From a virus (lineage: Duplodnaviria > Caudoviricetes): 64,000 nucleotides of DNA. The position numbers and the translations under genes were made by a program. Of this stretch, positions 879 to 32,251 are shown piece by piece; positions within the stretch are counted from its first letter, which is position 1; the number at the start of each line of letters is the position of its first letter. Location of the stretch: IMG/VR virus record IMGVR_UViG_3300042350_003801; one strand, 5' to 3'. Under the pieces are notes generated by a model, which ran no database searches, was not told the DNA's origin, and saw nothing but the letters and a program-made list of their open reading frames with translations.

Positions 879-1301
879 TCACTCTGGTATATTTAAATAA
901 TCTTCAGCCATATGTATTTTTACTTTTTGATTACTTTTCGGTTTGGATAATCTCAGTCCAAGCCATTTTTCACACTTGTTGGGGTTAACATAATAGCATT
1001 TATCCGTATCTGGACAATAAATGCACATTAAATCTAATTCATTTTTATCGTAATCTTTATGATGTGAGCCATTTCTGTCGGCCCAAGATGTTCCAAAACG
1101 TACATTAATTACGTTATTATTAGCCGCTCTATATTTAACTTGAACTCTTTTAAAAATGCCGTCTTTATACGCGACTAAATCAAAAGATTCGTGCTCTGTA
1201 TGCGGGGTAAGAATTAAATAACCCTTTTCATACAAATCAAGTTGGGCTTTTAACACACCAAGGTCGCCTTTATTTTTAGTATGGTGATACCTCATACTCA
1301 T
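879..1301 (-). CDS. free-standing PD-(D/E)XK homing endonuclease, I-Ssp6803I-like (PDDEXK_5)
   Basis: TKNKGDLGVLKAQLDL..GY, FDLVAYKDG..RVQVKY motifs; AAGGAG RBS. Confidence 0.8.
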   Translation of the reverse strand: MSMRYHHTKNKGDLGVLKAQLDLYEKGYLILTPHTEHESFDLVAYKDGIFKRVQVKYRAANNNVINVRFGTSWADRNGSHHKDYDKNELDLMCIYCPDTDKCYYVNPNKCEKWLGLRLSKPKSNQKVKIHMAEDYLNIPE

Positions 1302-1402
1302 ATTCTCCTTTATTAAGTTCGCATTTCTATTTATAAAAATGGGGAGGTTGAACCTCCCCGGAGCCTTAAAGGTGCGAACTTAATAAGGCATCTCTATTTA
1401 TA
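1302..1402 (-). promoter_or_regulatory. double late promoter with 14-bp complementary arms and an internal hairpin controlling the endonuclease
   Basis: TATAAATA at 1395-1402 and 1328-1335; inverted repeat 1310-1323/1373-1386; GGGGAGG/CCTCCCC hairpin 1341-1359. Confidence 0.7.
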
Positions 1403-27987: not shown

Positions 27988-28440
27988 TCACCCGTTCGGT
28001 GTTTCCACCTTTGAGGTCTTCTTCTTTCCACCAATAGTGTATTTTGAAACCAATTCGTAATCCTGACGTTCTTTATATGTAAGAACCTTAATAAGGCTCA
28101 GAGGAGCCATATCTTCAATTTGTTCTGGTCTTACAATATTGATTAGTCCCCAATCACTTAAAAGTTTTGCAATCCTATTACGTCTCCGAACATCATCTTC
28201 AGATAGAGTGCAATACTTACCATCAAGAGCAAATAGTTCTTTATATGAAATGATATAGTATTTTCCTGACTTATGAAGAATGTGAGCACTCTGGTATAGT
28301 TTCTTTTCGTGCTTACTTGAAATACCTACACGCTGTAGGGTTTCTTTAACAACTAGAAAAGTATCTGGTTCATCAAGTGTTACTTCAATCATCAGAGAGG
28401 GATTCCAATCAACGTATCCCTCTTTATTCAATTCACTCAT
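27988..28440 (-). CDS. regA: translational repressor RegA
   Basis: DTFLVVKETLQRVGI..LYQSAHILHKSGKYYI..KELFALDG. Confidence 0.93.
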   Translation of the reverse strand: MSELNKEGYVDWNPSLMIEVTLDEPDTFLVVKETLQRVGISSKHEKKLYQSAHILHKSGKYYIISYKELFALDGKYCTLSEDDVRRRNRIAKLLSDWGLINIVRPEQIEDMAPLSLIKVLTYKERQDYELVSKYTIGGKKKTSKVETPNG

Positions 28441-28829
28441 TTTCTCATTCCACCTTTATTCAATCTTTGTTTGATAAAATTTATCTCTTCTCTATTTAGA
28501 AGTCTTAGGGCTTCTAATGCCCGTTTATCATTGTAACCATAATATTCTTTAATGGCGGCTAGATTCTCTGCATCTTCTTTTTTAACCCAAGGAGTGTATC
28601 TCTTTTTCTTTCTCAAAGAATGTAGATAAAAGGCATATTGCATATCCTTAGAGATATAAGGATATTGATTCAGTTCATTGGCAAACAGAATCGTATCAAG
28701 ATGCCCAGCAACACACTTATTGACAATATAAGGAGTATAGGAAGAAATATTTTCAGGAATCTCCTCAATAAGATTCTCTTTCGAGAAATTGATTGAAGTT
28801 AGCCACTGTCCTAAATCCGGTGCAGTCAT
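28437..28829 (-). CDS. 62: clamp loader small subunit gp62
   Basis: YTPYIVN..FANELN..YYGYN..ALEAL. Confidence 0.9.
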   Translation of the reverse strand: MTAPDLGQWLTSINFSKENLIEEIPENISSYTPYIVNKCVAGHLDTILFANELNQYPYISKDMQYAFYLHSLRKKKRYTPWVKKEDAENLAAIKEYYGYNDKRALEALRLLNREEINFIKQRLNKGGMRK

Positions 28830-29081
28830 TTAACCTAGATCTTGTAAAAAACCCGTTTCAAGAAATGCCTCTTGTTCCATATCAACAATAGGTGTTGCAA
28901 ACTCAATAGGAGGATTTGCAGTTTCAAACGTTTCAGTGCATAGACCAAAAAGTTCAATAAGGGTTAGAGTATCTGTTACATCAATTGCCTTTAGGTCTTT
29001 TTCAATTACCCAGTCTTGAAATAGGTCAATCTCTTTCCAGGGGTCTTCGGAATAACCCCACGGTGGTTTAATGTCATTCAT
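28830..29081 (-). CDS. hypothetical protein
   Basis: ORF track. Confidence 0.5.
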   Translation of the reverse strand: MNDIKPPWGYSEDPWKEIDLFQDWVIEKDLKAIDVTDTLTLIELFGLCTETFETANPPIEFATPIVDMEQEAFLETGFLQDLG

Positions 29082-29347
29082 TATGCAGCTCCAGTTTTTA
29101 GAAATTCGGGTAGACCCTTATAAAGGCTATAGGCATACTGCCGTTGCTCTTCGGTTAGTGAATCTTGATGCAGTTCACTAAACTCCCCGGCGGGCTCTTC
29201 TCCTAAAAGGTCCATAACAATGTTTGGCTTCCAGTTGTCATATGCAAAAGGATTCTGCCAAGTTGAGTCTTCGGTTAGATTGTTATAAAAAACTGTTGCA
29301 AGTGTAGCCAGGTCGTCGGTTTGATTTCGGTTCATAATTAACTCCAT
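29081..29347 (-). CDS. hypothetical protein
   Basis: ORF track. Confidence 0.5.
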   Translation of the reverse strand: MELIMNRNQTDDLATLATVFYNNLTEDSTWQNPFAYDNWKPNIVMDLLGEEPAGEFSELHQDSLTEEQRQYAYSLYKGLPEFLKTGAA

Positions 29348-29368
29348 TCGATTTCATAGTAAAAAACT

Positions 29369-30565
29369 CTATTGATTTTCTAGACGCTTCACAGCAGATG
29401 CTAAATGGTGAAAATCACCGCTCAGTCTTAATTCCGCTCCACGCCCGTAATCGGCGTACTCCGCCGATGAAATTTCTTTATCGGTTAGGCTGCGCCAACC
29501 TTCCTTTAAGATATTGATAGAGGCATTTAAGTCTCTATCATGTTTTGAGCCGCAAGACGGACAAGTCCATTCCCGAATGTTTAGAGGCATCTTGTCTTCC
29601 TTGTAACCACAAGAACTACAAGTCTTACTAGAGGGAAAGAAGCGGTTAATCTTAACCAAGACTTTTCCATACCAGTTGCATTTATACTCTAACATAGAAA
29701 CAAAAGTAGACCAGGCTGCATCAGAAATAGACTTCGCCAGTTTGCGGTTTTTCAGCATTCCAGAAACATTAAGGTCTTCAAGAACTATTAAATCAAATGT
29801 GTTCACTAAAGCGGTAGACACATTATGAAGAAAATAAATTCTTGAATTGGTAATGAATTCGTGTACTTTAGCAACTTTTATTCGTTGCCGGTTGTAACGA
29901 TTACTACCTTTAGTCTTACGACTTAAATGTTTCTGTGCTTTTTTGAGTTTCGCTTGGTTCTTGCGAAACCACTTGGGGTTGTTGATAACTTGACCATTTG
30001 AAAGAATGAACAAGTCTTTAATGCCCAAATCAATACCTACTACTTTACCCGTAGAGGGTATTGGATTGAGTTCTTGCTTAATCAAGATAGAGACAAAATA
30101 TTTTCCGGTTGGTGTTTTAGAAACAGTAATGCTCCTGAAGTCTGCTTCTTCGGGAATTTCGCGGTCAATAACAACTTTAACCCAACCAATTTTTTCAAGT
30201 CTAACTAAAGAGTTTTTTTGGTCAAGTTTAAACCTTTGATTATTGAGTCTAAAAGACTGCCTATTTGATTTCTTCTTGTATCTGGGTCTTCCGAGTTTAA
30301 CCTTTCGTTTCTTGTTGAAAAACTGTTTCTTAAATTCAATAAAGTCATCTCTTTTTTGTTGAAGGGTAGAAGCAGAAACCTCTTTAAGAAACTCAAATTC
30401 AGGAGTGTCTTTAAGCGTCTTCTCGGTAATAACTTCCTTGGAGTTGTTATTGAAGTTTTCAACAAGTTTATTCCAAACAAACCTGCAACAGCCGAAAGTC
30501 TTTGCTAGTAGAATTTCTTGCTCTTCAGACGGATAAATCCGAAACTTGTATGCTTTTAAGTGCAT
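29369..30565 (-). mobile_element. tnpB: TnpB RNA-guided endonuclease (IS200/IS605 family), solo
   Basis: [12 protein letters not shown], RuvC GIDLG / VLEDL / DRDLNASIN, CxxC-CxxC zinc finger. Confidence 0.93.
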
Positions 30566-30684
30566 CCGCTCTGTTTATTGGTTGGCAATACTATTTAGTA
30601 AAGTTTTATTTTATAAGGGGAGAATTGCTCCTCCCCACCTGAAAAGCGCCAACCAACCAGGCATCTTTATTTAGTGAAGTTTTA
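30566..30684 (-). promoter_or_regulatory. double late promoter with complementary arms and an internal hairpin upstream of tnpB
   Basis: ACTAAATA at 30668-30675 and 30592-30599; arms 30647-30657/30577-30587; GGGGAG/CTCCCC hairpin 30617-30636. Confidence 0.65.
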
Positions 30685-30729
30685 ACAACAAAAAACATAA
30701 TGCACAATATAATTTTCAAGTAAGTTAAG

Positions 30730-31677
30730 TTAACCAGAAAACTCCAATTCATACATAATTTCAGTTACACAAGACATCATATTGATTTCTTGGTCTGCAA
30801 CTTTCGTTGCTAAATCCTGGTATTTTGCCAGAATCACAATACAAGGAGGAATCGTTGCTTTAACGATTTCTTCATTTTTCCATAACTCATCAAAGATTTT
30901 TCTGATTGTAATGGATGGGTCGTTATCAATGTTCTGAATAACCCATTTTCGCACATTAGCATAGTTCTTGCTCTTGATGTGCTGAAATAATTCAATAACT
31001 GAAACATCGGATGTTGTTCCAAGAATACCAACATCAATGATACCGTTTCTTGCATATCCCTGAAGTTCTAGAAGTGTTCTCCTAAAATCAGGATAATATT
31101 TACCAACATAAGATGCAACAACTTTTTTGTCAAACTCAATATTCTCAGTTTCTAAAATCGTGCAAACACTCTTAAAGAATCGGGCAAGAATCTTTTGTTT
31201 TTCGTCAGACGGAAATGTGAAGTCCTTATTAATACACCTTGAGCACAGGGCTTTGTCAATTCGGTTCTTGTAATTACAAGTGAAGATGAAGACACAATTT
31301 GATTGAAAGTCTTCAATAAATGCCCGAAGTGCAAGTTGTGCATCGTGAGTGAGATTGTCGGCCTCGTCAATCAGTAGAAACTTCTTCCCGGTTGATAAAA
31401 GAGAAATCGTAGAAGCATATGATTTAACTTTATTGCGAATCACATCAATGCTTCTTTCTTCACTTCCATTAATCTTTATGAAGTCTCTACCTAGTTCATC
31501 TGCAAGCGCAAGCGTTACTGATGTTTTTCCAGTTCCAGACGGGCCAGAAAGGAGAAGATTTGGGACATTTCCAGAATCCCTCAGTTCAATAAAGTATGAC
31601 TTTAATTGTTCAGGAAGAATACATTCATCTACTGTTTTTGGCCTATGTTTTTCAGTGAAGAGGAACTCATTGTTCAT
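30730..31677 (-). CDS. 44: clamp loader large subunit gp44
   Basis: EKHRPK, GPSGTGKT, IDEAD, YPDFRR. Confidence 0.95.
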   Translation of the reverse strand: MNNEFLFTEKHRPKTVDECILPEQLKSYFIELRDSGNVPNLLLSGPSGTGKTSVTLALADELGRDFIKINGSEERSIDVIRNKVKSYASTISLLSTGKKFLLIDEADNLTHDAQLALRAFIEDFQSNCVFIFTCNYKNRIDKALCSRCINKDFTFPSDEKQKILARFFKSVCTILETENIEFDKKVVASYVGKYYPDFRRTLLELQGYARNGIIDVGILGTTSDVSVIELFQHIKSKNYANVRKWVIQNIDNDPSITIRKIFDELWKNEEIVKATIPPCIVILAKYQDLATKVADQEINMMSCVTEIMYELEFSG

Positions 31678-31693
31678 TATATAAATTGCGGGG

Positions 31694-32251
31694 TTAATCA
31701 AATAGTTCAACGTCTTCAATAAAGAATTTAAGGTCTTCTTCTGTCATAGAGACATCATTCTCCACCTTAACTTTAGGTCCAATAAAATCATTGATTCGTT
31801 GAATTCTTGTTTCAATGTCTTTTACATCAAGATTATGAAGTTCATAATTTCCGGTGAAGTCAAACAGTGGAACAAAGGTTAGAGAATCACCCCGTTCAAA
31901 GAGTTTGTGCATACCCATTAGTTCGTAAGTGGCAGCCCCGGCGGCGGCAACGACACGCCGATCGGAGGCGGCATACCCGGCGGCATACCAGGCGGCATTC
32001 CCGGCGGCAGCCCCGGCGGCATACCTGGCGGCATTCCCGGCGGCATTCCTGGCGGCATAGTAGGTGGCATAGTCGGGGGCATCATAACGGCGGGCAACTT
32101 CATCCCATTGGTTCTCGGTAAGACCATCCATAAACCACCAGAAGTTAAGGACGGTTTCGTAGTTTGGTCCTAGAAAATTCTGTGGATTTTTTAGGGCTTC
32201 AGGGTTTTGAAGTTCGTTGGAGAAGTTTTGATGTGCTTTGGAGTAGTTCAT
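31694..32251 (-). CDS. hypothetical protein with Ala-rich repeat
   Basis: [30 protein letters not shown]; locally GC-rich. Confidence 0.6.

Follow-up and report, generated by a model that had tools for sequence, protein, structure and literature searches.

A transposase-free TnpB-omegaRNA cassette in the gp44 gene of a T4-like phage, a probable RNA-guided homing endonuclease

Introduction

For bacterial elements of the IS605 and IS607 families, RNA-guided homing by TnpB has been demonstrated (PMC8612924, PMC10690162); there it acts as a transposon back-up in cells and plasmids. The TnpB of ISDra2, an IS200/IS605 element (PMC8612924; PDB 8BF8, 8EXA, 8H1J), draws its guide from the right flank and cuts 15-21 bp past its TAM, and homing into empty alleles has been proposed for it. 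IS607 elements such as CboIStron (PMC10690162) encode a right-end omegaRNA with a nexus hairpin and a 3' pseudoknot, the latter being a general omegaRNA feature; the last scaffold bases equal the last TAM bases, and terminal inverted repeats and target duplications are absent. The free-standing homing endonucleases of T4-like phages (Seg, Mob) are solo genes beside or within a conserved gene, whose target lies in the cognate gene of nuclease-free related phages and whose own copy is immune by sequence difference. Their late promoter lies inside a hairpin that hides the ribosome-binding site (RBS), a control known for I-TevI, segB and mobE (PMC2988022) and for environmental phage endonucleases (PMC2677866).

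In this study, we analyse a stretch of 64,000 nucleotides from a T4-like phage (the window), in which a solo tnpB gene follows the clamp-loader gene gp44. The cassette shares with IS607 elements the right-end features described above and a close relative that carries a serine recombinase. It differs in that it lacks tnpA and an intron, has lost the end repeats, and bears a patch of its host gene together with a phage late leader. Whereas IS607 elements have a G-rich TAM and a GG core, neither was found here; the shared bases are TAT/AT, and the predicted TAM is (N)GTAT (xGTAT) with an AT/TA core. Domain order, RuvC triad, zinc finger and the flank-derived guide are like those of ISDra2, but there is no Y1 TnpA or subterminal end hairpin, the right end is not TCAA, and the setting is a phage rather than a cell. 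The likeness to Seg and Mob extends from gene position, target and immunity to the leader, which belongs to the same family as those of GIY-YIG-like and HNH-like genes. Unlike in Seg and Mob, specificity comes from an RNA guide and not from a protein (GIY-YIG, HNH, PD-(D/E)XK or LAGLIDADG), the nuclease is a RuvC TnpB, and the guide is a displaced gene end that varies between alleles. The window TnpB would work like protein-specified homing endonucleases and is not a member of those families.

Phages also encode CRISPR mini-arrays, TIGR-Tas, VIPR and TldR, the last a phage TnpB derivative, and these are likewise RNA-guided and aimed at related elements. In contrast to them, the cassette has no array, a single flank-derived guide, intact RuvC residues and a target that is its own insertion site. 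Our search of the openly accessible literature turned up no description of a TnpB acting as a free-standing homing endonuclease in phages, and the accessible part of a 2026 review of homing and OMEGA systems (PMC13565253) contains no such case. TnpB homing, solo tnpB genes and patched, late-controlled phage homing endonucleases are each already known; for their union we found no published precedent.

Results

The carrier is a freshwater T4-like phage. The window spans its replication region, with gp45, gp44, tnpB, two small open reading frames (ORFs), gp62, regA, hsp20 and gp43 all on the minus strand. The nearest GenBank phage matches of the window are cyanophages, distant at about 65%, and from these the host is probably a cyanobacterium. 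A preliminary description of the sequence had placed tnpB between gp44 and gp62 with two small ORFs, and the order is indeed gp44, tnpB, 88-aa ORF, 83-aa ORF, gp62, regA. The interval that it gave for the gene, 29348-30565, contains tnpB, but the ORF starts at 29369, so that 29348 adds 21 nt of 3' flank. The features of the locus are as follows.

30730..31677, minus: gp44, clamp-loader large subunit (Pfam AAA and Gp44_lid), both host gene and target gene
30767..30771, minus: site 1, TGTGT in the window and TGTAT in most empty alleles
30751..30755, minus: site 2, predicted TAM and insertion site TGTAT in gp44
30750..29356, minus: the element
30730..30750, minus: replacement gp44 tail at the cassette left end (E-L-E-F-S-G-stop)
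30566..30684, minus: homing-endonuclease-type leader
29369..30565, minus: tnpB, 398 aa, RuvC and zinc finger intact
30031-30029, 29779-29777 and 29533-29531, minus: RuvC D179, E263 and D345
29620-29552, minus: zinc finger, C316/319/335/338
29356..29470, minus: omegaRNA scaffold and right end, covering the last ~34 tnpB codons and ending in TTACTAT at 29356
29450..29468, minus: 5' nexus hairpin, whose loop AGTA can pair with TACT at 29361-29358 in a predicted pseudoknot
29336..29355, minus: predicted guide, 16-20 nt, the displaced original gp44 3' end (E-I-E-W-S-stop)
28830..29347, minus: the two small ORFs of 88 and 83 aa, both resident genes of the phage and placed directly after gp44 in empty alleles
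28437..28829, minus: gp62, clamp-loader small subunit (Pfam Phage_clamp_A)

The 88-aa and 83-aa ORFs have no Pfam or PHROG match. They were ruled out as cargo of the element, since both occur in cassette-free alleles. Between gp45 and gp44 lies a 185-aa ORF with an Ala/Tyr-rich repeat (31694-32251, minus); it belongs to a multi-copy family with several paralogs around L106/L186 and before the L005 element. The uvsX gene is continuous in the window, and in the relative L238 about 1.1 kb interrupts it at residue ~213.

The TnpB protein matches Pfam HTH_OrfB_IS605, OrfB_IS605 and TNB, scores above the cut-off for NCBIfam guided_TnpB and below that for IS607_TnpB, and has ISDra2 TnpB as its closest natural solved structure (E 9e-73). 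The three RuvC acidic residues and the zinc finger reported earlier were found as D179, E263, D345 and four cysteines. D179 and E263 are conserved in 120/120 homologs each and D345 in 119/120, the one exception being a gap. The protein falls far below the cut-off of Cas12 models and its triad is intact, so it is neither a Cas12 nor an inactivated TldR, and a search for a CRISPR array found no repeats next to the gene. Judged from sequence, namely the HTH, OrfB_IS605 and zinc-finger domains with a RuvC D-E-D triad, it is a TnpB/OMEGA nuclease. About 100 homologs lie at 74-96% identity, and those fetched were all in phage contigs; a search of GTDB genomes, sensitive to close relatives only, returned no relative above 42% and hence no host copy. 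Against eight relatives, gp44-site alleles included, the solo tnpB is under purifying selection (dN/dS 0.05-0.09).

At unrelated sites, family members remain alike beyond TCAA and the stop codon as far as TTACTAT, where their similarity ends. The consensus fold of the scaffold comprises the 5' hairpin and a long stem with three doubly compensated pairs; the window scaffold is about 20 nt shorter than most, and no Rfam family matches scaffold or leader. The four or five bases that precede the final AT of the scaffold are complementary to the nexus loop, and loop and end covary in distant homologs (AATCA/TGATT, AGTTA/TAACT, AATTA/TAATT, AGTTG/CAACT). On average the loop forms 4.3 pairs with its own scaffold end versus 2.6 with the ends of others; in L006 the pairing is broken. 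Because conservation runs past TCAA and because loop and end covary, we place the scaffold end at 29356 and the guide at 29355-29336. The TCAA formerly proposed as the right end is therefore internal, and the first 16 of the 23 bases quoted for the guide are scaffold. That no second copy lies in the window is true of the quoted string and of the corrected guide alike; the target lies in other phages.

No tnpA adjoins tnpB, as had been observed before, and the family's own serine TnpA has no match in the window. A Resolvase-family serine TnpA lies directly upstream of tnpB in L005 (83% identical), L010, L011 and L021, and is the only transposase seen beside relatives; a Y1 (HUH) TnpA was not seen there. 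The lineage is IS607-like, because these four relatives carry the serine enzyme. An element of the IS200/IS605 type had been implied earlier; no TCAA/TCAC-type end was found, nor a right-end hairpin in the consensus fold. The preliminary description had also taken a tnpA elsewhere as a sign of ordinary transposition, and such a gene does exist in L005, though not within the window. Its remark that no left-end hairpin is visible holds for IS200/IS605-type ends, but a strongly structured leader with two late promoters stands upstream of tnpB. L005 nests among leader-bearing copies in the tree with moderate support; therefore exchange of tnpA and leader would have occurred more than once or through recombination. 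In L006, L007 and L013, the left end carries CAATAAA-like words whose complement lies at the right end; these may be inferred to be TnpA sites. Neither end of the gp44-site copies, the window included, retains these subterminal repeats. A serine recombinase of 36% identity occurs in related complete phages.

Alleles without the cassette were found in which gp44 is directly followed by the 88-aa gene. In three of these (L211-L213) TGTAT is followed by the window guide at 20/20, with flanks 89-93% identical to the window; in four others (L207-L210) the match behind TGTAT is 19/20. Such empty gp44-gp62 alleles had been proposed as a check, and they are recovered only with the corrected guide. The window's own gp44 has TGTAT among its last codons, followed by the replacement tail, and matches the guide at 9/20; the carrier would be spared because its tail mismatches from position 4 on. 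At the unrelated site of L006, 5/5 empty alleles carry TGTAT or GGTAT before the guide match, and the left flanks of L013 and L205 suggest AGTAT and CGTAT; the predicted TAM is (N)GTAT. Empty alleles for the L013 and L205 guides were searched for and none was found, and a metagenome scan for the junction returned one locus. Many empty alleles mismatch the window guide in the seed and some carry TGTAC or TGTTT, and therefore the target range may be narrow. L214/L215 and L207-L210 are not excision products, because their left flanks are unlike those of any filled allele; L211-L213 may be excision products or recombinants. In L228 (3440-3475) a cassette-free gp44 ends in ELEFVN; after it comes a short stretch that resembles the right end plus the old gp44 tail and may be the scar of a lost cassette.

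The leader upstream of tnpB contains two late-promoter-like words, CTAAATA, of a kind that precedes many window genes. Its parts, all on the minus strand, are as follows.

30674-30668: first CTAAATA
30659-30648: arm
30636-30617: GNRA hairpin
30598-30592: second CTAAATA
30586-30578: complementary arm, just before the RBS and ATG

A degenerate pattern search recovered the leader in 76 viral stretches. Among 63 distinct copies, seven stand before TnpB and about 48 before GIY-YIG-like or HNH-like genes, the genes having been sorted by N-terminal motif and samples checked by Pfam and PHROG. An exact complement of the leader's own arm follows the second box in 58/62 leaders, over 15 arm sequences, as compared to 529/3276 (16%) of cross pairs. 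In the predicted fold, the start region and RBS are hidden only in the long transcript and are largely freed in the second-box transcript, and the leader is thus modelled as a late promoter within an RBS-sequestering hairpin. On these sequence relationships the tnpB leader is borrowed from homing-endonuclease genes. A second, diverged double-promoter leader (window 879-1402, minus) precedes a 140-aa ORF that resembles a PD-(D/E)XK endonuclease (PHROG 5018, unknown function).

Five different in-frame guides occur at the gp44 locus among filled alleles. The junction falls at site 2 in the window, L202 and L008, and 16 nt upstream, at site 1, in L198 and L238; the right junction of L198 lies 16 nt away from its left junction. 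Most of the other guides also match natural empty alleles: that of L202 matches L214/L215 (20/20), that of L008 matches L188 (19/20) and that of L238 matches L193 (19/20), while the best TAM-bearing match for L198 is 17/20. The right end of L008 finishes in TAC, as in TGTAC alleles. All four filled alleles with a left flank carry the same replacement tail and vary at a single base across patch plus leader (30771-30568); divergence among their tnpB genes is 8-9%. Filled and empty alleles sit in mosaic backgrounds. Site 1 is TGTGT, a non-TAM, in every filled allele and in some empty ones, and would therefore protect site-1 carriers. The Ile-to-Val change at site 1, by which the TAM there is lost, was dropped as a carrier-only mark, as Val also occurs in some empty alleles.

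Discussion

We propose that the cassette is an IS607-derived TnpB-omegaRNA module acting as a free-standing, RNA-guided homing endonuclease, a reading to which we assign a probability of about 0.7. The long replication-operon transcript would fold and hide the tnpB ribosome site, which a late transcript from the second promoter would free. TnpB would then load the 3' RNA and, when a phage without the cassette co-infects, recognise (N)GTAT followed by the guide sequence in that phage's gp44; by analogy to ISDra2, it would cut about 15-21 bp downstream of the TAM. The break would be repaired from the carrier genome, with gp44 on the left and the guide and 88-aa gene on the right, copying in the cassette together with the replacement tail (co-conversion of the patch). 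A near-identical patch and leader in diverse backgrounds may be an indirect sign of biased inheritance. The preliminary description had already suggested an RNA-guided homing nuclease directed at competing phages; for action on related phages this idea is well supported, but its TCAA end and 20-mer were wrong, and it lacked the replacement tail, the TAM and the borrowed leader. Against homing, any TnpB insertion should show such a match between guide and empty allele after a TAM, and the match alone does not distinguish homing from transposition.

That limitation gives room to a reading that we consider unlikely though serious, in which the cassette is a non-autonomous IS607 derivative of IS1341-like, solo-tnpB architecture. 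It would be moved by a serine TnpA in trans, TnpB would only restore the element after excision, and the gp44 tail and leader would be historical accidents. The clean TAM/element/guide junction against L211-L213 fits it, as do the right end's last bases, which equal those of the TAM as in IS607 (PMC10690162), the TnpA(S)-tnpB arrangement of L005, the many unrelated insertion sites, the serine recombinase of related complete phages and the fact that solo TnpBs are common and mobile (PMC10691335). It accounts poorly for a left end that is gp44 coding sequence without the family end repeats, for the loss of ~20 nt at the right end and for a leader derived from homing-endonuclease genes. The gp44-tailed form, moreover, is seen only at gp44, with five guide variants and two junction positions but one left end. 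The family occupies at least eight unrelated sites, and therefore something moves it to new places; homing and transposition are compatible at that level, in that TnpA in trans may seed sites which homing maintains.

The purifying selection on tnpB would also suit a domesticated exclusion weapon that cuts the essential gp44 of competitors without net copying of the cassette, with the carrier protected by guide mismatch and the target being a replication gene of close relatives. Such a role is improbable. With a guide that is the adjacent flank and a cut at the insertion site, the geometry is that of homing; the leader points to expression that is late and restrained; the backgrounds of filled and empty alleles are mosaic; and exclusion and homing in T4 are two aspects of a single event (PMC2988022). 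A recently stranded relic that has lost activity could explain the shortened right end, and L228 resembles a decayed scar at the same site. We give this very little credence, as dN/dS stays at 0.05-0.09 even among gp44-site alleles, and triad, scaffold, pseudoknot pairing, leader and guide are all intact.

If the homing reading is true, an essential gene here harbours a natural cut-and-rescue drive that is guided by RNA. TnpB appears to have parted from its transposase and to have adopted the niche and leader of phage homing endonucleases as well as their habit of patching genes. The proposal can be tested directly, since donor and recipient alleles are named, a new TAM (GTAT) is predicted and several guides occur naturally, and it bears on the selection that keeps solo tnpB genes, on the mosaicism of T4-like phage genomes and on the evolution of fixed flank guides toward renewable ones.

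More tentatively, and with considerable doubt, the gp44 cassette could be a self-updating gene drive: whenever it meets an allele, its right end would be joined anew, through the shared TA(T), to the gp44 end found there. A new guide would thereby be picked up from resistant alleles while one immune left patch is kept. This would explain why five in-frame guides occur at one locus, most of them matching different natural gp44 alleles, why L008 ends in TAC, and why junction 2 coincides with the cut expected of a junction-1 guide, 15-16 nt from the TAM. If true, it would amount to guide acquisition without Cas1/Cas2 or an array. Guide change by drift with selection is also possible.

The layout of a recoded own copy with the displaced end as guide recurs elsewhere in the family, in L205 and L013. 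In a small region near gp25/gp6, L203 and L205 each bear a different insertion of this TnpB family: the L203 guide is the end of the gene that its element replaced, and the L205 guide runs antisense to the first part of a 46-aa gene, of which L205's own copy is synonymously recoded. For three family TnpBs (P0010, P0017 and P0025) the longest contig is the same 243,166-bp one (the L203/L234 contig), with an empty gp44 site; these are probably several copies in one genome. In L204 (3697-3760) and L237 the right end runs into CTAAATA, the promoter of the large terminase gene (ACTA then AATA), and therefore the guide would begin inside a late promoter.
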